Source: Candidatus Niyogibacteria bacterium RIFCSPLOWO2_01_FULL_45_48
GTDB lineage: Bacteria > Patescibacteriota > Minisyncoccia > HO2-45-28
DNA: 45,635 nucleotides
Reading direction: 5' to 3'
Assembly (NCBI GenBank): GCA_001819395.1
Contig: MHMQ01000033.1
Span: 1-45,635, forward strand
Shown: piece after piece, positions 8,625-45,189 of the stretch
How positions within the stretch are numbered: the first letter of the stretch is position 1
Layout: each line of letters starts with the position of its first letter
Program-made: the position numbers and the translations under genes
Notes under the pieces: model-generated
The model's database searches: none
The model's input: only the letters and a program-made list of their open reading frames with translations
Told to the model about the DNA's origin: nothing

Positions 8625-8645
8625 CCCTGGGATCGAATCCCAGGG
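8625..8645. repeat. hairpin repeat family P1, copy 1 (CCCTGGGAT-CGA-ATCCCAGGG)
   Basis: Perfect 9-bp stem with a 3-nt loop, 23 nt upstream of the Y1-transposase-like start codon. Confidence 0.9.
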
Positions 8646-8668
8646 AAGACTGTGCTACAATTATTTAT

Positions 8669-9364
8669 ATGCCCACCTTTAAGCCACAACTGGCCGATGA
8701 TGAGATATATCATATTTATAATCGCGGAATAGATGGCAAAATCGTTTTTCCTAAAAACGAGTACTATGAAAGATTTATTCAGGGATTAGGCTTGTTTAAC
8801 ACAGCAGATCCGGTAAACATTAAGGATGTGGTCGTCAATTCCAGCAACCCTGGGATTCGATCCCAGGGAAGAGGGGGCGAAAGGCTTGTTGATGTTGGCC
8901 TATTTAATCTTAGGCCGACACACTATCATTTGTTACTCAGACAAGTTGTCCCGAATGGCATATCCCTTTTTATGCAGAAAATTGGTACTGGTTTTACCAC
9001 TTTTTATAATTTAAAAAACAAGAGATCCGGTCCTTTGTTTCAGGGAGCCTTTCGAGCAAAGTTGGTAGACAAAGACCGTTATTTAAAGCACCTTTTTGCG
9101 TATATTGCGTTAAATAGCCTTGATAATGATATGCCGGAGTGGAGAGATGGCGGTATCACCGACCGGAAAAAAGCAGAAGAACTTCTGATCAATGCCAAGT
9201 GGTCAAATTTCGGGTCGTTGTTTAAAAATGACAAAAGATTTAATGGGGTTGTCAACGAAGATTTTGTGAAGGAATTTTTTGATAGCCATAGTGAACTCAA
9301 AGAGTTCGTTTTGTCCTGGGGTGTTGCCGAGGCGGATTTAATAAAAGAAATAACTGCTGGTTAA
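8669..9364 (+). CDS. HUH/Y1 tyrosine transposase-like protein (IS200 / REP-associated RAYT-like)
   Basis: 231 aa. N-terminal IYHIYNRG, HUH motif THYHLLL, FQGAFRAK, and C-terminal Tyr motif FAYIALNS. This matches the COG1943/Y1_Tnp pattern. The gene is flanked by P1 hairpins. Confidence 0.75.
   Translation: MPTFKPQLADDEIYHIYNRGIDGKIVFPKNEYYERFIQGLGLFNTADPVNIKDVVVNSSNPGIRSQGRGGERLVDVGLFNLRPTHYHLLLRQVVPNGISLFMQKIGTGFTTFYNLKNKRSGPLFQGAFRAKLVDKDRYLKHLFAYIALNSLDNDMPEWRDGGITDRKKAEELLINAKWSNFGSLFKNDKRFNGVVNEDFVKEFFDSHSELKEFVLSWGVAEADLIKEITAG
8848..8868. repeat. hairpin repeat family P1, copy 2, inside the CDS (CCCTGGGAT-TCG-ATCCCAGGG)
   Basis: Same 9-bp stem with the loop inverted (TCG instead of CGA). 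It is read in frame as NPGIRSQG within 8669-9364. Confidence 0.9.
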
Positions 9365-9368
9365 AAAT

Positions 9369-9387
9369 CCTGGGATCGAATCCCAGG
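9369..9387. repeat. hairpin repeat family P1, copy 3 (CCTGGGAT-CGA-ATCCCAGG)
   Basis: 8-bp stem and 3-nt loop, 5 nt after the stop codon of 8669-9364. Confidence 0.85.
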
Positions 9388-9410
9388 AATCCCAATAGTT
9401 TTCGGATAAT

Positions 9411-9429
9411 CCTGGGATCGAATCCCCGG
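9411..9429. repeat. hairpin repeat family P1, copy 4 (CCTGGGAT-CGA-ATCCCCGG, one stem mismatch)
   Basis: Direct reading. It shares the 5' flank AAT with copy 3. Confidence 0.8.
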
Positions 9430-9443
9430 AGAAATTGGTTTAT

Positions 9444-10220
9444 TCATGGAATTTCTACAAACTCGTCTAATATTTTCTCACACCCAGCGGGGAGTCGTTC
9501 TGGGGCAGACTGCACAATTCCCAGTCTTTTTAGTTCCATCGCCTGAAATATATTTATGCAGTTTATTTGTTTCACTCTTAACCGCGTGTTTCCGTTTGTG
9601 GGTTCAACACACACGCCACCAGATCCAGATTGATTTTTAAGCGCCTCTTGTCCCCTACCTGGGCACACGACGTTTTCAAAATTGTTTGCGGCATTTATTT
9701 GTTCTTGTCCGCCCGGAGAGCCGACGAATTTTTGAGCAGAACCCCCAAGTTCACCCAGTGGTTTCGGCGTTAGGTCGGCTGTGTTAGATGTTCCAAACAA
9801 CACCTCTCCCCAACTCGGGCACACTCCGCCGGGGCATTGCAACGTAAATCCCTTCGGCGCTTTTAGGGTGGTGAACGCCGGGTTTATGGTATTTAAAATG
9901 AGCCACGAGCCGAGGGCTATGGCCAAGCCCAAGACGGAGGCCGAAATCCTGTTTTTGGCGGCTTCAACCTGCGGAGGAGAAATGGCGCCGGCCATCCATT
10001 GGAAACCGGCGAATATAATGGAAAGAGTGGCGATTAAAGCGGCGCCCGCGATCATTACCGGAAAAAGCCAGCCAAGAAAATTAAGAAAACCGCCCGTGGC
10101 CCACTCGGGAACAGGGACCGGAGAGCTTCCTGTTATGTTTGCTTCAACCGCGGCAAAAACAGAAATAGGGCTTGCGAAAACGGCCGACGTTATTAAAAAA
10201 TAGAACATTTTAGAAAACAT
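9444..10220 (-). CDS. T4SS pilin-like (TrbC/VirB2-like) secreted membrane protein with Cys-containing C-terminal extension
   Basis: 258 aa. A signal peptide is followed by two hydrophobic helices separated by a short loop (..FAGFQWMAGAISPP..LGLAIALGSWLILNTINP). It is the last gene of the VirB4/VirB6 operon. Confidence 0.45.
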   Translation of the reverse strand: MFSKMFYFLITSAVFASPISVFAAVEANITGSSPVPVPEWATGGFLNFLGWLFPVMIAGAALIATLSIIFAGFQWMAGAISPPQVEAAKNRISASVLGLAIALGSWLILNTINPAFTTLKAPKGFTLQCPGGVCPSWGEVLFGTSNTADLTPKPLGELGGSAQKFVGSPGGQEQINAANNFENVVCPGRGQEALKNQSGSGGVCVEPTNGNTRLRVKQINCINIFQAMELKRLGIVQSAPERLPAGCEKILDEFVEIP

Positions 10221-20657: not shown

Positions 20658-21524
20658 TTTTGGGATATTTTTTGCCAAACAAGCCCAATTTTCGAGCGAC
20701 AAATCTTCCGCTCGCGCATTCTCTTTCACCCCGCATTTTACTCGACATCCGATGTCGAGTAGGCCCTTCAGATTGTTTTTGAGGAGTTTGCGGGGGTGTG
20801 AAAAACCGGCCTTAACTATGTCAAAAAACCCTTCTTGGCTGATTTTATGCTGGCGAAAGAAGTCTTTTTCGCGTCTTTTGAACACCACAACCGCCGAATC
20901 AACCTTTGGTTGAGGCCAAAAATTGCCTTTTTTGACCAAAAAAGCAATTTTTGGATCAGCGTATGCCTGTACGGAAATGGACAAAACACTCTTTTTCTCT
21001 TTTTTTTCGACAAGAGCCGTGCTCTTGTCAGAAATGGTTAGAACCCGACTCTGATCGGCCACGATTCTTTTGGCCACCTCTTTTTGCAACATTAAAACCA
21101 CCATTTTTATCCCAAACTTGGTTTCAGACAGGAGGAGGCGCAAGATCTGGCCGGTAAGATAGTAAGGAATATTGGCCACCACCTTGTCTACGGTCAAAGT
21201 GACAAGAGCCGTGCTCTTGTCAGAAATGGTCAGAGCACGGCTCTTGTCATTCTTGCCACGGAAAAAATCGCGGATGTCGGCACGAACGAGGGTCAAACGG
21301 CTCGAGAGCACGAAAGTTTCAAACTTTTTGTTTAAAAAATCAAAAAGTTTAGGGTCTTTTTCGACGGCGACGACCCTCGCGCCCGTTTTCAAAAGCTCTT
21401 CGGTTAAAATTCCCCTGCCGGGACCTATTTCCAGAACAATATCTTTTGGGCCTGTTTCGGCCAAATCCGCCATTTTTTGCGCGATGCGTTTCGATATCAG
21501 AAAATTTTGTCCGAGTTTGGCCAT
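20652..21524 (-). CDS. rsmA: 16S rRNA (adenine1518/1519-N6)-dimethyltransferase
   Basis: QNFL start, SAM motif LEIGPGRGILT, ANIPYY, LQKEVAKR, and PKVDSAVV. It contains two extra 16-aa segments compared with E. coli KsgA from memory. Confidence 0.9.
   Translation of the reverse strand: MAKLGQNFLISKRIAQKMADLAETGPKDIVLEIGPGRGILTEELLKTGARVVAVEKDPKLFDFLNKKFETFVLSSRLTLVRADIRDFFRGKNDKSRALTISDKSTALVTLTVDKVVANIPYYLTGQILRLLLSETKFGIKMVVLMLQKEVAKRIVADQSRVLTISDKSTALVEKKEKKSVLSISVQAYADPKIAFLVKKGNFWPQPKVDSAVVVFKRREKDFFRQHKISQEGFFDIVKAGFSHPRKLLKNNLKGLLDIGCRVKCGVKENARAEDLSLENWACLAKNIPKL
20739..20761. repeat. perfect 10-3-10 hairpin inside rsmA (TACTCGACAT-CCG-ATGTCGAGTA)
   Basis: Direct reading. It encodes LLDIGCRV in a C-terminal segment whose length equals that of E. 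coli KsgA, so there is no net insertion. Confidence 0.85.
21009..21056. repeat. 48-nt palindromic element, in-frame in rsmA (copy A)
   Basis: It starts with GACAAGAGC-CGT-GCTCTTGTC (9-3-9). The first 30 nt are identical to copy B. It encodes DQSRVLTISDKSTALV. Confidence 0.9.
21201..21248. repeat. 48-nt palindromic element, in-frame in rsmA (copy B)
   Basis: GACAAGAGCCGTGCTC ... GAGCACGGCTCTTGTC forms a 16-nt inverted repeat, plus an internal 9-3-9 hairpin. It encodes DKSRALTISDKSTALV. Confidence 0.9.
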
Positions 21525-26703: not shown

Positions 26704-26710
26704 ATAAAAT

Positions 26711-26731
26711 GGTTAGAACCGAGTTCTAACC
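26711..26731. repeat. hairpin repeat family P3, copy 1 (GGTTAGAAC-CGA-GTTCTAACC)
   Basis: Perfect 9-3-9 hairpin. Its 3' arm contains the final Gly codon and the stop codon (26726-26728) of the dksA-like gene. Confidence 0.9.
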
Positions 26732-27088
26732 AGTGGCGTGTTCTATGCAGGTTTCGGCCGCTGGGTTGGCCTCAAGACGCGCTTCCGGTATGGGAACTTG
26801 GTCAACGGAGCAGTGGCCGTAGGTTCTTTTTTCAATACGGGTAATCGCCGCGTTTATTTCATTGAGGCGAGTTTCAAGTTCAATCTCGCGGGCGGCGCGG
26901 TTGCCCATTTCTTCAAAACGGTCAGCCATCTCGCTTATTTCCCCCGGCTGTATGTCGGTCTCGGGAGGCACCGATTGCCAGTCCTTGGGGTTATCCGGCG
27001 ATATTTTGGCGATAGTTTTAAGTTCGCCTTCAACCCTAAGGCGCTCTTCGTCCAATCTTCTTCTGAAATGATTTAAATCCAAAGCCAT
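26726..27088 (-). CDS. DksA/TraR-family protein (degenerate zinc finger)
   Basis: 120 aa. A coiled-coil N-terminus is followed by ..RIEKRTYGHCSVDQVPIPEARLEANPAAETCIEH. Only 2 Cys are present instead of the usual 4. Confidence 0.7.
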   Translation of the reverse strand: MALDLNHFRRRLDEERLRVEGELKTIAKISPDNPKDWQSVPPETDIQPGEISEMADRFEEMGNRAAREIELETRLNEINAAITRIEKRTYGHCSVDQVPIPEARLEANPAAETCIEHATG

Positions 27089-30970: not shown

Positions 30971-31876
30971 ATGGCGCAGTCGGACAAAAACGATTTTTTA
31001 AGGCAATATTTGGAATATCTGGAAATTGAGAAGGGGCGGAGTTTGAAGACGGTTGAAAATTACGGCCGGTATCTCTCTGTTTTTTTTAATTTTTCAAAAA
31101 TTGCTACGCCCGTGGACATCACCGACGATGTGGTGCGCGATTTTCGGATGTGGCTTAATCGCAAAAACCTCAAGAAGAAAACGCAAAATTATCACCTGAT
31201 TGCGCTTCGCGGATTTTTGAAATATCTGGCGCGTAAAGAAATCCCGTCTTTGGCTGCCGAAAAAATAGAGCTGGCCAAAACGGGCGAGCGGGAAATTGAC
31301 CTGATTTCAGAAGATGATTTGGAGCGACTGCTTTCTGCTCCCGCCAGCAAAGAACCCAAAACTTTGCGTGATAAAGCGATTCTGGAACTTTTGTTTTCAA
31401 CAGGGCTCCGCGTCTCCGAGCTTTGTTCGCTTAACCGCGACTCCGTCAATTTAAAAAAGGGCGAGTTTTCAATTCGCGGGAAAGGAGAAAAAATGCGGGT
31501 TGTGTTTTTGTCCGATGGCGCGAAAATCGCTGTTGAAAATTGGCTTGGCAAACGCGCCGATGTCCACGAAGCTCTTTTTGTCAACTTCAAGCCCGGAAAA
31601 AAAGATAATCTGGACGAAAACGCGCGCCTGACGCCTCGTTCGGTTGAACGCACCATAAAACATTACGCGATTAAGGCCGGAATTTCCAAAAAAGTTACAC
31701 CTCACACCTTGCGTCATTGCTTTGCCACCGACCTTCTTTCGGGCGGAGCGGATTTGCGTTCGGTTCAAATGATGCTTGGGCACGCAAACATTTCAACCAC
31801 TCAAATTTACACCCACATAACCAACCGCCAGTTAAAAGATATCCATAAGGCATTTCATGCGAAAAAAAGAAAATAA
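30971..31876 (+). CDS. XerC/XerD-family tyrosine recombinase
   Basis: 301 aa with an SAM-like N-terminal domain. Catalytic pattern: ..GLRVSEL.., HTLRHCFAT, LGHANISTTQIYTH. Confidence 0.9.
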   Translation: MAQSDKNDFLRQYLEYLEIEKGRSLKTVENYGRYLSVFFNFSKIATPVDITDDVVRDFRMWLNRKNLKKKTQNYHLIALRGFLKYLARKEIPSLAAEKIELAKTGEREIDLISEDDLERLLSAPASKEPKTLRDKAILELLFSTGLRVSELCSLNRDSVNLKKGEFSIRGKGEKMRVVFLSDGAKIAVENWLGKRADVHEALFVNFKPGKKDNLDENARLTPRSVERTIKHYAIKAGISKKVTPHTLRHCFATDLLSGGADLRSVQMMLGHANISTTQIYTHITNRQLKDIHKAFHAKKRK

Positions 31877-31904
31877 AAATGTGCACTTCTGAAGTGCACA
31901 TTTT
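31877..31904. terminator. bidirectional terminator hairpin between convergent xer and transaldolase genes
   Basis: AAATGTGCACTTC-T-GAAGTGCACATTT, with A and T runs on both sides. Confidence 0.7.
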
Positions 31905-31908
31905 GTTG

Positions 31909-34939: not shown

Positions 34940-34985
34940 CGTTTTTTGTTTTTGAAATGAACCCCCGCCAAAACCAGCTTCTTTA

Positions 34986-35014
34986 CAGTGGTTAGAACTC
35001 GGTTCTAACCACTG
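34986..35014. repeat. hairpin repeat family P3, copy 2 (extended 13-3-13: CAGTGGTTAGAAC-TCG-GTTCTAACCACTG)
   Basis: Perfect stem. The loop is inverted (TCG) relative to copy 1. Confidence 0.9.
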
Positions 35015-35039
35015 TTGGTCAGAACCGAGTTCTAACCAA
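35015..35039. repeat. hairpin repeat family P3, copy 3 (TTGGTCAGAAC-CGA-GTTCTAACCAA, one mismatch)
   Basis: Directly abuts copy 2. The mismatch becomes a G-U pair on the minus-strand RNA. Confidence 0.85.
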
Positions 35040-35099
35040 AGTTGGCTTTGGTAGGAGGACAACCAAATTTCGGTTGTCCAACGTTGCTTTGCTTCGGCC

Positions 35100-35309
35100 T
35101 TACTGACGCGAACTGCGCCAAATCAGACCGACGCCGAACACGATTGCCAGGATGCCGACGTAAAATATCACCGTCAGCGGGCCGTAATTGTGAATGATCT
35201 GGCCGGTTTCAGATGCCTTTTGGACCGCAAGCTGGATCGCGCCCACGATCCCGAGTCCGCATAAGGCGAAAAGCGCGCCAGCAAACACACCACCGACTCT
35301 GTTGTGCAT
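35100..35309 (-). CDS. small two-TM membrane protein
   Basis: 69 aa, ATG start preceded by AAGGGGGTG (SD-like). Two hydrophobic helices flank ..NYGP... The 3' UTR carries several hairpins. Confidence 0.5.
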   Translation of the reverse strand: MHNRVGGVFAGALFALCGLGIVGAIQLAVQKASETGQIIHNYGPLTVIFYVGILAIVFGVGLIWRSSRQ

Positions 35310-35606
35310 GACACCCCCTTTTTTATTAAATGAAGGAACTTCCCAACTCCGATTCAGCCCCGCTACTTACTTGTAATACAAAAAATGTCTAGCGGGACTG
35401 AAGCGGGGCGGGGAAACTTAATTCCCCAGTACGGCCCCACGCCGCTTTTAGTTCGCATCGGTACATCAGGCCGAATTTTCTAATTTGAAGCCTTTTCCCT
35501 TCGCAAACTAACACCGGAGCACCTTTCAAGAGTTTTATGGTCAAGACCCATTAAAGATGCCCAGCTTGTGATTCCCCATGCGTATACCCCTGTCTATCAA
35601 TGTTAC
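35310..35606 (-). promoter_or_regulatory. ~300-nt structured 5' leader (riboswitch- or attenuator-like, class unassigned)
   Basis: It lies between the consensus promoter (35641-35613) and the ATG at 35309. It contains nested GC stems (GGGGAATTAAGTTTCCCC inside AGCGG..GGGGC/GCCCCGCT), two GGGGAAT motifs and an internal T6 run. Confidence 0.3.
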
Positions 35607-35612
35607 TAAACG

Positions 35613-35641
35613 CATTATACACCCAATGAGTTCATTTGTCA
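35613..35641 (-). promoter_or_regulatory. consensus sigma70-type promoter (TTGACA-17-TATAAT)
   Basis: On the minus strand: TTGACA at 35641-35636, a 17-nt spacer, TATAAT at 35618-35613. The -35 lies in the inverted repeat TTGTCAAG-CCCC-CTTGACAA (35635-35654). Confidence 0.6.
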
Positions 35642-35774
35642 AGCCCCCTTGACAAGTTTTGTTTATTTTCATGTCAGAAATGTTAAAAAACGGCTTATTT
35701 AAGCCATTTTTAAGACTAGATAAAAATTGTCAAAGTCGGCCAACGAGAGCAATTTTATAATATTGTCAATTTCA

Positions 35775-35803
35775 CTTGACAAAGTGTCAACTATTTGCTA
35801 TAA
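35775..35803 (+). promoter_or_regulatory. consensus sigma70-type promoter (TTGACA-17-TATAAT)
   Basis: TTGACA at 35775-35780 and TATAAT at 35798-35803. The -35 is half of the inverted repeat TTGTCAA-TTTCAC-TTGACAA (35762-35781). Confidence 0.6.
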
Positions 35804-35809
35804 TGCAAC

Positions 35810-36087
35810 CAGAAGTATGAAGCGGTCGGCATGGGGTCGGCCGCATGGTTCAATCGGAGGGCTGCTCTGTGGCAAAAGAAGCGGGTCAAATAAGAACCCA
35901 CTTTAGAAGCCAAAGAGAGACATATAGAGCAGATAAAAAGCAAGAAAAGCGGCCCTCCACAGCCAATCGGAGGGACGCCGAGTGAATATAGGCGGCGACG
36001 GCGGTTATTAAGTAAGAAGCAATAAAATCAGTGAGCAAGTCTTTGTTGATTCTTCTGGGGTCGTGCGAATGCGCGGCCCTTATTTTT
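35810..36087 (+). ncRNA. candidate ~280-nt non-coding RNA (unknown class)
   Basis: It is bounded by a perfect consensus promoter and an intrinsic terminator, with no ORF of 60 aa or more. CAATCGGAGGG occurs twice (35850-35860, 35963-35973), with a complementary GCCCTCC (35951-35957). The 5' CCAGAAG can pair with CTTCTGG at 36051-36057. Confidence 0.35.
36057..36087 (+). terminator. rho-independent terminator
   Basis: GGGTCGTGC-GAAT-GCGCGGCCC (9 bp, two G-U pairs) followed by TTATTTTTT. It abuts the stop of the convergent TrmB-family gene. Confidence 0.6.
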
Positions 36088-37416: not shown

Positions 37417-38876
37417 AAATCCCGAAGGAAATTAAAGAGGTTTATGACGAACTGGCGAATGCCGGATACGAGGTGTATCTTGTCGGCGGGTGCGTGCGGG
37501 ACCTGTTGCGCGGAGTTAAGCCGAAGGACTGGGACATAACGACGAACGCGAAGCCGGAAGAGGTTCAAAAAATATTTCCGGACAGTTTTTATGAAAACGA
37601 TTTCGGAACAGTTGGAGTAAAGACCGCCTCCGAAGATCCGACTTTGGCCGTTGTTGAAATAACACCATACCGCGTTGAGGAAAAATATTCCGACAAACGA
37701 CATCCCGACTCCGTGAAATTCGCCGACAAACTTGAGGACGATTTGAAACGACGCGATTTCACGACAAACGCTCTTGCGCTCCAACTTGGACGTGAAACGT
37801 CCAAGTTGGGGGTCGTTGATCTTTTTGATGGTGAAAAAGACCTGAAAAATAAAATTATCCGCGCGGTTGGCAATCCGAAAGAAAGGTTTGAAGAAGATGC
37901 TTTGCGAATAATGCGGGCGGTGAGATTCGCGGCGGAGCTTGGTTTTTCGATTGAAGACAAAACACGAGACGCGCTTGAGGCCAAAAAGGGCCTTCTGGAA
38001 TTTGTCTCAAAAGAAAGGGTCAGAGACGAGCTCATAAAGATTTTTGAAACAAGCCGGCCATCTTTGGGTTTTGAGTTAATGCGTGAACTCGGTATTTTAA
38101 AATACGTTATGCCGGAAGTTGAAGAGGGCTGGATGGTGGGACAAAACAAGCACCACATTTATACCGTCTGGGAACATAACGTGCGCACCATGGATTACGC
38201 AGCCAAAGAAGGCTGGTCTTTGGAACTGAGAATCGCATCCCTCCTTCACGATGTGGCCAAGCCTAGAACCAAGGAAGGCGATGGCCCAGATTCAACTTTT
38301 TACAACCACCAGATGGTCGGCGCGAAAATGGCCGCCCAGATTTTGTCCAGATTGCGTTTTTCTAAAAAAACGATCGAGAAAGTGGTCAAGCTCGTGCGCT
38401 ATCATATGTTTTATTACAACGTCGGCGAGGTGACCGATTCCTCGGTCAGGCGTCTTTTGGCCAAAGTCGGGCCCGATGACATGAACGACCTGATAAACGT
38501 GCGCATAGCAGAGCGTATCGGTTCGGGCGTACCCAAGGCCGAACCCTACAAGCTTCGCCATTTTCGGTTCATGGTTGAAAAGCTCCAACGCGACCCTATT
38601 TCGGTGCGTATGCTAAAACTCAACGGTGACGAGGTGATGAAAATTTGCGAAATTCCGGCCGGGCCTAAAGTCGGCGCGGTTCTGGATGTTTTGCTCGAGG
38701 ATGTGCTTGACGATCCGAAACTTAACGATAAGGATTATCTTTCCGGAAAAGCCAAGGAATTATGCGCGGTGTCGGACTCCGAGTTGTCTAAAATGCGTGA
38801 AGATGCTAAAAAAAAGAAAGTCGGATTTGAGGAGGAAGAGGTTGGAAAGATAAAAAAGAAATATTATGTGAAGTAA
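37413..38876 (+). CDS. cca: CCA-adding enzyme / tRNA nucleotidyltransferase with HD domain
   Basis: The start is moved to ATG 37413 (MKIPKEI..). Motifs include GGCVRDLLRGVKPKDWD and RRDFTTNALA, plus an HD domain (LLHDVAKP). Confidence 0.85.
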   Translation: MKIPKEIKEVYDELANAGYEVYLVGGCVRDLLRGVKPKDWDITTNAKPEEVQKIFPDSFYENDFGTVGVKTASEDPTLAVVEITPYRVEEKYSDKRHPDSVKFADKLEDDLKRRDFTTNALALQLGRETSKLGVVDLFDGEKDLKNKIIRAVGNPKERFEEDALRIMRAVRFAAELGFSIEDKTRDALEAKKGLLEFVSKERVRDELIKIFETSRPSLGFELMRELGILKYVMPEVEEGWMVGQNKHHIYTVWEHNVRTMDYAAKEGWSLELRIASLLHDVAKPRTKEGDGPDSTFYNHQMVGAKMAAQILSRLRFSKKTIEKVVKLVRYHMFYYNVGEVTDSSVRRLLAKVGPDDMNDLINVRIAERIGSGVPKAEPYKLRHFRFMVEKLQRDPISVRMLKLNGDEVMKICEIPAGPKVGAVLDVLLEDVLDDPKLNDKDYLSGKAKELCAVSDSELSKMREDAKKKKVGFEEEEVGKIKKKYYVK

Positions 38877-38900
38877 TTTTCCCCGCCATGGCGGGGCAAG

Positions 38901-38937
38901 CGGGATGCAGTATATCGGCAGTACGTGCGCTTCGGGG
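38901..38937 (+). pseudogene. tRNA-Pro 5'-half fragment
   Basis: CGGGATGCAGTATATCGGCAGTACGTGCGCTTCGGGG matches nt 1-37 of the adjacent tRNA-Pro(CGG) with 2 substitutions, including U8 to C. It then diverges. Confidence 0.75.
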
Positions 38938-38969
38938 AAATTTTTAAAACAAGTTTTTGTGAATCCTGT

Positions 38970-39040
38970 CGGGATGTAGTATACCGGCAGTACGTGCGCT
39001 TCGGGTGCGCAAAGACTGGGTTCGATTCCCAGCATCCCGA
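38970..39040 (+). tRNA. tRNA-Pro (anticodon CGG)
   Basis: Hand-folded: acceptor CGGGATG/CATCCCG, anticodon arm TGCGC-TTCGGGT-GCGCA (G37), T-arm CTGGG-TTCGATT-CCCAG. No encoded CCA. Flanks GAATCCTGT/ACAGGATTC extend the acceptor helix to 16 bp. Confidence 0.85.
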
Positions 39041-39070
39041 CAGGATTCGTAAAACGACAATAAAAATTTC

Positions 39071-39091
39071 CGGACTTCCTGCGGAAGTCCG
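39071..39091. repeat. perfect 9-3-9 hairpin (CGGACTTCC-TGC-GGAAGTCCG)
   Basis: Direct reading. It lies between the intact tRNA-Pro and the duplicated 3' half. Confidence 0.85.
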
Positions 39092-39105
39092 TGGTTCCGA
39101 GGGAG

Positions 39106-39139
39106 GCAAAGACTGGGTTCGATTCCCAGCATCCCGACA
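39106..39139 (+). pseudogene. tRNA-Pro 3'-half fragment (perfect 34-nt repeat of 39009-39042)
   Basis: GCAAAGACTGGGTTCGATTCCCAGCATCCCGACA is identical to the 3' half of the intact gene. It ends at the A of the next gene's ATG. Confidence 0.85.
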
Positions 39140-43939: not shown

Positions 43940-43956
43940 CTCAAACTTAGTTTGGG
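43940..43956. repeat. hairpin repeat family P2, copy 1 (CTCAAAC-TTA-GTTTGGG)
   Basis: 7-3-7 hairpin with one T-G position in the stem. Confidence 0.8.
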
Positions 43957-44043
43957 GACGGCTGTAACGGACATATGCGCTATTGGACAGACAACATGAC
44001 TCATTTTTATGTCCATTATAACTGTTTTATGTCTTCAATTTGA

Positions 44044-44060
44044 CCCAAACTTAGTTTGGG
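44044..44060. repeat. hairpin repeat family P2, copy 2 (CCCAAAC-TTA-GTTTGGG)
   Basis: Perfect hairpin. It sits between TTGACC (44040-44045) and TATAAT (44064-44069) upstream of the second Y1-transposase-like gene. Confidence 0.9.
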
Positions 44061-44093
44061 TAGTATAATTACTTTGTTTCATATGAAACATTT

Positions 44094-44735
44094 ATGAGAA
44101 ATCACCAATTTATTAAAGGAGAATTTTATCATGTTTATATTCATGCTATTGAGGGCAGAAATTTATTCAATAACACAGAGGATTATGAAAGATTCATCAC
44201 TACCCTTTTTGCTGCCAACGGAACCAAGTCGGTTCCAAGAATAGAAGGCTCAAACTACCTAAACTTAGTTTGGGATATAAGGGATGGCGATGTCGACGTG
44301 GGGGAAGAAATGGTAGATATTGTTGGTTTTTGTTGCAATCCTACTCACGCACACCTGGTTTTAGGCGAAAGAGAAGAAGGAAATATCTCCAGATTTATGC
44401 ACAAATCTCAAGTCAGCTATGCAAAATATTACAATATTAAACACGATCGGCGCGGCCACCTGTTTGAGAGAAACTTTAACTCCAAACACTTACAAGATAA
44501 CGAGTATTTGCTTAGCGTTTCGTGCTATGTTCATCTTAATCCAAAGGATACAAAAGAATGGTCCGGCAAAGAGTATTTATATCCTTGGTCGAGTTATCAG
44601 GATTATGCAATAAAAAACAGGTGGGGCCGTTTATTAAAAACAGACATTGTTTTGTCTCAATTTAATAATAATGATGAGTATAAACTTTTTGTTGAACAGT
44701 ATAAAGACGGTGATCTTGAAGAAGTTTCACGTTAA
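44094..44735 (+). CDS. HUH/Y1 tyrosine transposase-like protein (IS200 / RAYT-like), second divergent paralog
   Basis: 213 aa. EFYHVYIHA, HUH motif THAHLVL, GHLFERNFNSK, and Tyr motif SCYVHLNP. The gene is flanked by P2 hairpins. Confidence 0.75.
   Translation: MRNHQFIKGEFYHVYIHAIEGRNLFNNTEDYERFITTLFAANGTKSVPRIEGSNYLNLVWDIRDGDVDVGEEMVDIVGFCCNPTHAHLVLGEREEGNISRFMHKSQVSYAKYYNIKHDRRGHLFERNFNSKHLQDNEYLLSVSCYVHLNPKDTKEWSGKEYLYPWSSYQDYAIKNRWGRLLKTDIVLSQFNNNDEYKLFVEQYKDGDLEEVSR
44258..44274. repeat. hairpin repeat family P2, copy 3, inside the CDS (CCTAAAC-TTA-GTTTGGG)
   Basis: Read in frame as (Y)LNLVW(D) within 44094-44735. Confidence 0.85.
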
Positions 44736-44750
44736 ACATTTTATGACGCA

Positions 44751-44767
44751 CCTAAACTAAGTTTGGG
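44751..44767. repeat. hairpin repeat family P2, copy 4 (CCTAAAC-TAA-GTTTGGG, inverted loop)
   Basis: Located between the Y1-transposase-like stop and the yraN start. Confidence 0.85.
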
Positions 44768-44778
44768 AAAACTGGAAA

Positions 44779-45168
44779 ATGATTTCTGAAAAGAGAAAGT
44801 TGGGGAATACGGGGGAAGATTTTTGTGTGAAACATCTTGTGAAACAAGGGTATGATATTCTAGATAGAAATTATCTTAAAAAATGGGGCGAAATAGATAT
44901 GGTGGCTAAAAAAGACGGGGTTATTCATTTTGTTGAAGTTAAAACGAAAGAATTGGAAAGTTTCATGTGGAACAGTTTGGAGAATTATGATCCGGAAGAA
45001 AATGTGCATCCGTGGAAATTAAAACGGCTTTCGCGCGCGATACAGACATATTTGATAGAAAAAAATGTTGATGATGAAACCGAGTGGCAGGTTGATGTCG
45101 CGGCTGTTTTTCTTGATTTTGAGGCCAAAAAAGCTACGATTAGAATTACCGAGGATATTGGCTTGTAA
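44779..45168 (+). CDS. yraN: YraN-family (UPF0102) PD-(D/E)xK endonuclease-like protein
   Basis: 129 aa. G.TGEDFCVKHLVKQGYDILDRNY....GEIDMVAKKDGVIHFVEVKT matches the YraN pattern. Confidence 0.75.
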   Translation: MISEKRKLGNTGEDFCVKHLVKQGYDILDRNYLKKWGEIDMVAKKDGVIHFVEVKTKELESFMWNSLENYDPEENVHPWKLKRLSRAIQTYLIEKNVDDETEWQVDVAAVFLDFEAKKATIRITEDIGL

Positions 45169-45172
45169 TCTA

Positions 45173-45189
45173 CCCAAACTAAGTTTGGG
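45173..45189. repeat. hairpin repeat family P2, copy 5 (CCCAAAC-TAA-GTTTGGG, inverted loop)
   Basis: With its inward flank it forms a 20-nt inverted repeat (CCCAAACTTAGTTTGGGTAG) with copy 2. Confidence 0.9.

Follow-up and report, generated by a model that had tools for sequence, protein, structure and literature searches.

A 45,635-nt stretch of contig MHMQ01000033.1 (the window), from the patescibacterial genome Candidatus Niyogibacteria bacterium RIFCSPLOWO2_01_FULL_45_48 (assembly GCA_001819395.1), holds a gene for a 231-amino-acid (aa) Y1 HUH protein together with four copies of a short hairpin, P1, of which three surround the gene and one lies inside its open reading frame (ORF). The original prediction, made from the sequence alone, had read this locus as a unit of the REP-associated tyrosine transposase (RAYT) type, where REP stands for repetitive extragenic palindrome. 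Here, we investigated the gene, its hairpins and their relatives computationally. The features of the locus are listed below, with hairpins given without a strand.

8625..8645: upstream P1 copy (U), CCCTGGGAT-CGA-ATCCCAGGG, a perfect 9-3-9 hairpin 23 nt 5' of the ATG at 8669
8653..8661, plus strand: inferred extended -10 element TGcTACAAT, read from the sequence; it ends 7 nt before the ATG, and there is no Shine-Dalgarno (SD) sequence
8669..9364, plus strand: ORF for a Y1 HUH single-stranded DNA (ssDNA) endonuclease/transposase-like protein of 231 aa, TnpA-REP (RAYT) lineage, with a C-terminal helical domain (from motifs, an AlphaFold2 (AF2) model and relatives)
8848..8868: in-ORF P1 copy (I), CCCTGGGAT-TCG-ATCCCAGGG, with the loop reverse-complemented; part of N60-G67 in the alphaA-beta2 loop
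8921..8929, plus strand: codons of the HUH metal-binding motif H85-Y86-H87, with H85 and H87 invariant
9101..9115, plus strand: codons of the catalytic Tyr motif Y145-I-A-L-N149, class-2 type YxxxN, followed by S and not P
9368..9388: first downstream P1 copy (D1), TCCTGGGAT-CGA-ATCCCAGGA, 3 nt 3' of the stop
9410..9430: second downstream P1 copy (D2), TCCTGGGAT-CGA-ATCCCCGGA, with one mismatched stem pair

All four hairpin copies named in the original prediction are present, the downstream pair with the spans listed, and copy I is read in frame as N60-P-G-I-R-S-Q-G67 as had been proposed. No P1 copy beyond these four was found in the window at up to 3 mismatches, and chance expectation from dinucleotide shuffles of the 45.6 kb was 0.00. 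Folded as ssDNA, U and I both reach -9.8 kcal/mol and D1 reaches -9.0 kcal/mol, with z scores from -4.0 (U) to -4.9; D2 folds at -5.1 kcal/mol, which is not significant. Copies U and I have direct flanks in common (A...AAGA) beyond the stem, and the P1 repeat is therefore best described as a 26-nt unit in which only the 3-nt loop is flipped. A compensatory double change distinguishes the upstream hairpin of L001, a relative at 94% identity (CCTTGGGAT-CGA-ATCCCAAGG). An Rfam scan of the window returned four tRNAs only and no RNA family for the hairpins. We set aside a reading as integron attC sites or a CRISPR-like array, since neither an integrase nor a cas gene lies next to the repeats, which are perfect palindromes of 21 nt and do not form arrays.

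The protein belongs to a very large family. An exhaustive search returned 6,887 cluster representatives at E≤1e-3, of which 1,608 reach E≤1e-10, counted regardless of taxonomy. Hundreds of homologues were found, most of them with PF01797, and those with a named source, the closest included, come almost all from metagenome-assembled genomes (MAGs) of Parcubacteria/Patescibacteria, which agrees with the earlier call of a genome from the candidate phyla radiation (CPR). In an alignment of 121 family sequences, H85, H87, Y145 and N149 are invariant; these are the HUH and C-terminal Tyr motifs already picked out by eye. The motif consensus of this alignment reads MPNHYHLLL, GPLFQG, YIHLNPLD and RWSS, and lengths are about 215-250 aa. 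Among the 121 relatives, PF01797 (Y1_Tnp) is matched by 114 and NF047646 (REP_Tyr_transpos) by 116 at E≤1e-3, with a best value of 1.7e-14 for the latter, and no other transposase model was matched. The Y1_Tnp homology of the window protein is therefore transitive, resting on the 114 matching relatives and on a second paralogue in the window that passes the Pfam gathering score (24.7 vs 23).

A PDB sequence search with the single window protein gave no match, and the family profile gave only weak ones (4er8, E=0.039; ISDra2, E=0.059), so a comparison of folds was needed. The AF2 model of the 231-aa protein has a pLDDT (predicted local distance difference test) of 90.1. It contains beta1 (13-20), alphaA (30-42), a low-confidence stretch (51-73), beta2 (74-81), beta3 with the HUH motif (85-92), alphaC (97-116), beta4 (129-132), alphaD with Y145 (139-151) and a C-terminal helical domain (residues 158-229). 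Mean pLDDT drops to 67 over residues 51-60 and 57 over residues 61-70, so that the hairpin-encoded segment is the lowest-confidence part of the model; NPGIRSQG is predicted to lie in the alphaA-beta2 loop, the original prediction having placed it in a spacer before the HUH motif. Foldseek gave 4er8_A, E. coli TnpA-REP with a REP hairpin, as the best PDB match (probability 1.0, TM 0.68), followed by IS608 and ISDra2 TnpA, with probability 1.0 for the TnpA folds 4er8, 2a6m, 2xm3 and 2vjv. This bears out the Y1 fold of the original prediction. Matches to the Thg1 fold were disregarded for their poor TM-scores and high root mean square deviation. From the fold matches and the model matches of its relatives, the protein is a Y1 HUH enzyme nearer the REP-associated branch than IS200. 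No helix-turn-helix (HTH) family was detected in it, and PADLOC gave no defence-system match for either Y1 paralogue or the neighbouring genes.

Hairpins in related loci and at a second paralogue

We compared 84 non-redundant loci whose proteins are 34-100% identical to the window protein. Eighty of the related loci were fetched from metagenomes (34-45% identity) and scanned for locus-specific triloop hairpins. A hairpin lies within 120 nt upstream of the start in 78/84 loci, at or just past the stop in 74/84, and inside the ORF in 69/84, with 60 of these at aa 45-70. Hairpins flank the gene on both sides in 70 loci, and upstream, in-ORF and downstream copies occur together in 58. The typical distances are 5-30 nt before the start and 0-10 nt after the stop. 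Rarer in-ORF positions are aa 145-175, in 7 loci, and past aa 175, in 6 loci. Hairpin arms differ at 1.5-1.9 of 20 nt within a locus vs 9.6 between loci, which is concerted evolution within each locus. The unit thus recurs across a very large, mostly CPR/Parcubacteria family, in which each gene has its own hairpin at three fixed places. Three relatives illustrate this:

L004 (67% identity): upstream CCCTGAGGT-TAA-ACCTCAGGG; in-ORF the identical hairpin, peptide NTEVKPQG; downstream a degenerate copy
L005 (47-48%): upstream ACAGGGAT-CGA-ATCCCTGT; in-ORF CAGGGAT-TCG-ATCCCTG, peptide NAGIRSL; downstream ACAGGGAT-CGA-ATCCCTGT across the last codons and the stop
L003 (78%): upstream CTGGGAT-TTA-ATCTCAG; in-ORF its exact reverse complement, peptide DTEIKSQ; downstream a window-type hairpin

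Where orthologues carry a different hairpin, they also carry a different peptide, which favours the original prediction of a true hairpin copy in the gene over an incidental palindrome in conserved coding sequence. One clade (L026, L031, L048, L057, L060, L064 and L075) has no hairpin in the ORF, only upstream and/or downstream ones. Its members have the shortest alphaA-beta2 loop, 23-25 residues, and most share neighbour genes on one or both sides. This clade may show how the gene looked before the in-frame insertion, or may have lost the in-ORF copy.

For the stem alignment we used one hairpin per locus, 77 rows in all; one row, which holds the P2 hairpin of the second paralogue, is mis-centred and adds slight noise with the result unchanged. 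Over 13 pairs, 88% of cells are paired, and double-sided changes occur at all 13. Such changes fill 293 cells vs 96.5 in shuffles, and the covariation score is 0.70 vs 0.20 for shuffled and 0.10-0.18 for slid alignments. The sixth pair from the loop is paired less often than its neighbours. The family consensus is aAAtcTAT.GArGT-nnn-ACyTC.ATAgaTTt, with an A-rich 5' flank and a T-rich 3' flank.

The in-ORF copy is conserved in its frame as well as in its pairing. Codon phase of the hairpin core is identical in 51/60 loci (p=1e-16), and the encoded peptides are of the type x-E/D-V-x-L/P-P/R-x-I. In 20 phylogenetically independent orthologue pairs, codons for the same residue differ synonymously at 16/85 positions (19%) inside the in-ORF hairpin vs 1,221/3,198 (38%) in the rest of the gene (p=2.4e-4). 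Because synonymous sites inside the hairpin change half as often, the palindrome is held at the nucleotide level. The alphaA-beta2 loop itself is family-wide, at 23-48 residues, with a median of 27 (range 23-35) without an internal hairpin vs 33 with one. The original prediction had put a spacer some 25 aa longer than that of E. coli RayT down to the hairpin. We reject the long spacer as a product of hairpin insertion: members without an internal hairpin keep a loop of 23-35 residues, and the hairpin therefore adds only about 6-8 residues to an older flexible loop. Likewise, of the idea that the gene was colonised by its own substrate, the in-frame copy is real, but it is a long-standing trait of the family, conserved in its frame, and no one-off event.

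The proposed -10 box of the window gene ends so close to the ATG that the mRNA is probably leaderless. A strict consensus scan for sigma-70 -35/-10 promoters did not call this promoter, because the -35 is weak; it was assigned from the extended -10 together with a positional enrichment across the family. Most loci have a TATAAT-like box between the upstream hairpin and the ATG; in 48/84 its end falls 4-12 nt ahead of the ATG (mode 6-7 nt) vs 33% of control ORFs (p=3.6e-5), and SD-like words occur in 2/84. Judging by its position, copy U probably covers the -35 of the leaderless promoter, and in some loci the 5' arm of the hairpin itself provides TTGACG or TTGAAG at the correct spacing. On the minus strand, D1 is followed by TTTTT and is therefore terminator-like for a convergent pilin-like gene at 9444-10220. 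Autoregulation through the promoter hairpin, combined with insulation by the flanking copies, would be plausible. Among the control ORFs themselves (at least 150 aa, contigs L009-L088), one third have a TATAAT-like box 4-12 nt before the ATG, and SD words occur in 29/446; leaderless expression may be common in these CPR genomes.

The window also contains a second Y1 gene, near its other end, with a different hairpin:

44094..44735, plus strand: second Y1 paralogue, 213 aa, 30% identical to the first, motifs HAH and YVHLNP (tblastn E=3e-19)
43940..45189: hairpin P2, CCCAAAC-TTA-GTTTGGG, five copies where 0.14 are expected by chance
43940-43956 and 44044-44060: upstream P2 copies, the second followed directly by TATAAT
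44258-44274: in-ORF P2 copy, in frame, at about aa 56
44751-44767: P2 copy after the stop
45173-45189: P2 copy between the adjacent UPF0102 gene and tRNA-Pro(TGG), close to the start of the latter

One stretch therefore holds two orthogonal enzyme/hairpin pairs in which each gene is accompanied only by its own hairpin, and this argues for specific recognition. In the relatives, hairpins are also dispersed at low density. We counted 34 extra copies of a locus's own hairpin in 543 kb of flanking sequence, vs 1.55 expected, or about 1 per 16 kb. Of 18 dispersed sites inspected, 12 are intergenic and 6 lie in other long ORFs. Some of the dispersed copies flank a second paralogue.

Enzyme, proposed substrate and competing explanations

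We think it likely that the gene and its hairpins form a REPtron-like unit: a Y1 HUH ssDNA endonuclease of the TnpA-REP/RAYT lineage, predicted to be catalytically intact, with the 9-3-9 palindromes as its cognate substrates. The enzyme would bind the hairpin extruded on ssDNA, and would nick and rejoin the strand beside it. As each copy would present the same site, the copies would be repeatedly replaced from one another, and we propose that this is why they are alike within a locus and diverged between loci. Occasionally, copies would be seeded elsewhere, between genes and sometimes in frame in other genes. The in-ORF copy would go back to an old in-frame event that put about 6-8 residues into a permissive loop at the surface, and it would be kept by homogenisation and/or selection. 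Through the promoter copy the protein could repress its own transcription, while the flanking copies would insulate the gene from transcription outside. In this scheme, binding and cleavage of the hairpins by the window protein, the mechanism of homogenisation and the autoregulation are what we infer.

Several points weigh against this proposal. The support for this family is computational, from sequence and predicted structure. The window protein itself has no Pfam match even at E≤1, missing the gathering threshold of PF01797, and against NCBIfam NF047646 it scores 17.2 bits (E=0.0035) where the cut-off is 80 bits; the expected match to Y1 models is thus found in the relatives and not in the protein at hand. 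It and its closest relatives read YIALNS vs the family consensus YIHLNP and the class-2 YxxxNP, with P lost and Y and N kept. The canonical REP foot, GT[AG]G, is absent from the window hairpins and from the family consensus; in the window the P1 feet are TTCA before CCCTGGG, GCAA before CCCTGGG and AAAA before TCCTGGG, with no GTAG. In L001, a synonymous change in the in-ORF copy disrupts one stem pair. P1 has no copy away from the gene in the 45.6 kb, so that the spread between genes anticipated in the original prediction is seen for the hairpins of relatives and not for P1. A scan of 185,579 species-representative genomes, a set that does not include the source genome, with the P1 19-mer gave 7 scattered single matches in unrelated phyla, about chance level by our own estimate. 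Finally, loop orientation between sites is random. Upstream and internal hairpins are flipped in 29 comparisons and the same in 26, and upstream and downstream hairpins are flipped in 35 and the same in 32; the TnpA-REP enzymes known so far show strand specificity and in many cases read the loop (PMC8266576). Formal RAYT membership fails on the HMM (hidden Markov model) scores and the GTAG foot. The REP/RAYT-like reading of the original prediction is supported in substance by the bracketing hairpins, the in-frame copy, the fold and the full layout in 58/84 loci.

Could the unit instead be an active insertion sequence (IS)-like element? The U hairpin would then be the left end and the D hairpin the right end of a minimal IS of the IS200 type, excised and reinserted as ssDNA, and the in-ORF copy a tolerated passenger. 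The hairpins are indeed tight against the gene at both ends, and neighbourhoods are variable, no neighbour family being shared by more than 10 of about 80 loci. L005-L008 have the unit within the division and cell wall (dcw) cluster, in the same orientation, with an ftsI-type penicillin-binding protein gene on one side and murE on the other (gene at L005 2494-3168), which implies a past insertion of the whole unit. Furthermore, two or more family members occur in one stretch in the window, L014 and L058. However, paralogues of the same genome are divergent (30% identity) and not near-identical, both ends are one palindrome without distinct left and right ends, and the Tyr motif is the class-2 YxxxN and not the YxxxQ of IS200 (PMC6006769). 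The window and L001 have the same neighbour genes, and solo hairpins without the gene exist. An IS-like element would also leave the single frame and the synonymous-site conservation of the in-ORF copy unexplained, and we regard it as distinctly unlikely.

Less probable again is a set of double-stranded operators, in which the palindromes would be bound as duplex by the protein as a dimer, for instance via the helical domain at its C-terminus, or by a different regulator, for autoregulation or looping, with nothing extruded or cut. Overlap of the upstream site with the -35 fits this idea, as do the perfect dyad symmetry and fixed 3-nt centre, the random loop orientation, which is irrelevant for a duplex site, and the report that C-terminal tails of subclass 2.1 are HTH-like (PMC6006769). 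A covarying palindrome would also be expected of a dimer's double-stranded operator, which takes some force from the covariation as support for the REPtron-like unit. However, the catalytic HUH and Tyr residues are invariant in the family alignment, although a pure repressor could do without them, and the protein has no detected HTH family. The stems reach 13-20 bp and covary at all 13 positions with no conserved half-site, and copies lie far from promoters and within other genes. We give the lowest standing to hairpins as purely structural transcription or RNA elements unrelated to the enzyme, whether insulators, terminators, mRNA-stabilising stem-loops, or an attenuator or pause site in the ORF, made alike by local duplication. 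D1 is terminator-like on the minus strand for the convergent gene, REPs are known to stabilise upstream mRNA and terminate transcription, and the consensus flanks are A-rich 5' and T-rich 3'. Yet structure needs no shared sequence, and fewer than 2 of 20 nt differ within a locus vs 9.6 between loci. The upstream copy lies before the deduced transcription start and hence outside the mRNA, hairpin types switch jointly at several sites, and each paralogue has its own type.

The joint switching is clearest between L068 and L087, orthologues at 70% identity, whose unrelated hairpin types are switched together at the upstream and in-ORF sites; L087, L001 and L003 have mixed types within the locus. 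Homology also breaks at hairpins. Between the upstream and internal hairpins, the window and L003 share about 60% identity; between the internal and downstream hairpins identity is mostly 75-100% (90-100% in the final 300 nt), and past the downstream hairpin the two are unrelated. With L001, the alignment to the window begins exactly at the upstream hairpin. These breaks are suggestive of enzyme-mediated cutting and rejoining, and ordinary recombination or assembly chimeras could also have caused them.

Among P0002-P0004 and L003, we noted three proteins that share one N-terminal module up to the internal hairpin and continue in three different C-terminal parts. One of these parts is window-like from about aa 70, and in another the switch comes at about aa 140, close to the rarer in-ORF sites at aa 145-175. 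Such junctions are no more than suggestive of cutting by the enzyme, as they come from short MEGAHIT contigs and that of P0003, at about aa 140, is not at a hairpin. A separate insertion is seen in L001 (1-680) and L002, where a HicB-like antitoxin gene stands upstream of the unit, between directly duplicated stretches of about 55 nt from the 5' end of the neighbouring gene; this insertion is absent from the window.

We also considered, as a doubtful extension of the REPtron-like unit, that the in-ORF hairpin is a working part and not a passenger. Transcription would expose the substrate as ssDNA beside the nascent enzyme, and the in-ORF copy could be the protected master, with the copies at the promoter, at the terminator and at dispersed sites re-templated from it. 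The two hairpin-bounded modules of the gene might be cut and rejoined, giving self-limitation and an exchange of modules between strains. Parvovirus terminal repeats occur in flip and flop forms. By analogy, the roughly 50:50 loop orientations, the joint switching of types and the homology breaks in L001 and L003 would be the traces expected of HUH-driven hairpin transfer.

Relation to known systems

REP/RAYT systems are widespread and have been studied almost only in Proteobacteria and Cyanobacteria. To our knowledge, their cellular role is still unknown. REPtrons are well established, as is co-evolution between TnpA-REP and its REPs (PMC6006769, PMC8266576). REPs in frame within tnpA-REP genes were described by Quentin, Siguier, Chandler and Fichant (2018), who called this unique to subclass 2.4 (PMC6006769). 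Like subclass 2.4, the present family has a class-2 Y1 gene flanked by cognate palindromes, with in-frame copies in a variable, peripheral part of the protein. The insertion site differs: it lies between HUH and Tyr (beta3-alphaC) in subclass 2.4, whereas here it is chiefly before HUH, in the alphaA-beta2 loop, and the rarer second sites are at about aa 150-175 and beyond aa 175. The REPs of subclass 2.4 are long or double-foot, have the GT[AG]G foot and come from Cyanobacteria and Bacteroidetes (PMC6006769), unlike the perfect triloop palindromes without GTAG of CPR bacteria. Parcubacteria and Patescibacteria are not mentioned in PMC6006769, and in the sections read we found no description of frame conservation, synonymous-site conservation or promoter overlap. 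A paper linking REP or RAYT with Patescibacteria/CPR was not found in the literature searched, though absence there is not proof.

By motif set and size, the closest subclass is TnpA-Y1 2.1 (Bertels RAYT Group 1; TIRYT, Di Nocera 2013, PMC3733652), a resemblance of motifs alone and not tree-based. For this subclass, Table 1 of PMC6006769 lists the motifs NH[YF]H, FQ and Y[IV]HLNP, an SS motif in the C-terminal tail and a median length of 238 aa. Both groups have low copy number and few flanking repeats. Subclass 2.1 is most common in epsilon-, beta- and delta-proteobacteria and reportedly has no REP-like sequences nearby, only terminal inverted repeats (GGGG[AT][CG]A[CG]) in some members (PMC6006769). 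In contrast, hairpins bracket the gene in 70/84 loci here, and the GGGGWSAS motif was not seen in the family hairpin consensus. The GT[AG]G foot is reportedly missing also from subclass 2.6 and class 3 (PMC6006769).

E. coli TnpA-REP (RayT/YafM, subclass 2.2, 4ER8) is the best structural match and likewise a HUH/Tyr gene flanked by hairpins. It is a single-copy enzyme that binds and cuts its flanking hairpins as ssDNA, and enzyme and hairpin co-evolve (PMC8266576). It is smaller, 165 aa vs 231 aa here, where the alphaA-beta2 loop has 23-48 residues and a helical domain takes up about 75 aa at the C-terminus. The REPs of E. coli number in the hundreds, with none in the ORF, and combine a GTAG foot with a bulged stem, whereas the hairpins here have a perfect stem, a 3-nt loop, no GTAG and few to perhaps tens of copies.

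The fold, and the hairpins at both gene ends, are also shared with TnpA of IS200/IS605 elements (IS608, ISDra2, IS200). The end hairpins of IS200 block outside transcription and limit its own expression. Unlike IS200/IS605 (subclass 1.1), the present family has YxxxN and not YxxxQ, no adjacent tnpB and an identical palindrome on both sides. Its protein has 231 aa with a C-terminal domain vs a core of about 150 aa, and its paralogues are 30% identical, each with its own hairpin, vs the near-identical copies of an IS. Rickettsia palindromic elements (RPE) and intragenic REPs are similar in that short palindromes stand in frame in coding genes and are tolerated in loops (cited in PMC3733652). Both of these, however, are scattered in unrelated genes, while the insertion here is in the presumed mobilising enzyme's own gene, at a conserved site and in a conserved frame across a large family.

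What is new is a CPR-wide class-2 Y1 family with perfect triloop hairpins that lack GTAG, one copy at the promoter and one in frame before HUH. If our proposal holds, the range of REP/RAYT systems extends to CPR bacteria, and a motif class reported to be REP-less (subclass 2.1-like) has cognate hairpins in a CPR lineage. As this subclass 2.1-like CPR family shows in-frame self-insertion, such insertion is not confined to subclass 2.4. The form is compact: few perfect triloop hairpins, promoter and in-frame copies, and two orthogonal pairs in a 45-kb stretch make a small, defined test system for how a perfect palindrome is read without a GTAG guide, how copies stay alike and whether the enzyme regulates itself. 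For annotation, palindromic peptide segments such as xEVGLPxI, in this family and in CPR housekeeping proteins, may be footprints of hairpin elements.

Other hairpins and the tRNA-Pro region of the window

The original prediction had noted that the P1 stem resembles the T-stem of tRNA-Pro(CGG). The likeness is real, since the T-arm (CTGGGTTCGATTCCCAG, 39016-39032) is as in P1 at 15/17 positions, and a looser P1 pattern adds only this T-arm and a duplicated fragment of it to the matches in the window. A tRNA-derived origin of the hairpin was dropped. Orthologous hairpins, for example CCCTGAGGT-TAA-ACCTCAGGG, and the consensus GArGT-nnn-ACyTC are unlike the T-arm, and we therefore treat the likeness as a coincidence. 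The tRNA-Pro(CGG) gene (38970-39041) has partial copies on both sides, within 38900-39139. A copy of its 5' half precedes it at about 38900-38937, and a 33-nt copy of its 3' end lies 65 nt downstream at 39107-39139 (matching 39010-39041). Between the gene and this 3'-end copy is a 9-bp triloop hairpin, CGGACTTCC-TGC-GGAAGTCCG, at 39071-39091, whose arms are a permuted form of GGAAGT...ACTTCC, hairpins common in the Y1 family. The partial copies resemble the scar that integration or excision at the tRNA gene would leave.

When run on the window, the hairpin covariance model also detects a further hairpin family, P3, and single in-frame hairpins in two housekeeping genes:

26710-26732, 34989-35011 and 35016-35038: gene-less hairpin family P3, TGGTTAGAAC-nnn-GTTCTAACCA, three intergenic copies with flipped loops
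37785-37805: perfect triloop palindrome CTTGGACGT-GAA-ACGTCCAAG in the CCA-adding enzyme gene
20741-20759: perfect triloop palindrome CTCGACAT-CCG-ATGTCGAG in the ksgA/rsmA gene

Two of the P3 copies form a REPIN-like doublet 27 nt apart, and no Y1 gene is adjacent. The doublet stands at the start of about 1.1 kb (34955-36087) in which there is no long ORF. The palindromes in ksgA/rsmA and the CCA-adding enzyme gene may be in-frame hairpin insertions; as each occurs once in the window, their repetition is unproven. Finally, a 12-bp triloop hairpin, AAAAATGTGCACTTC-TGA-AGTGCACATTTT, with A-run and T-run flanks lies between two convergent genes at 31873-31907 (hairpin-model E=0.006) and looks like an ordinary bidirectional terminator.

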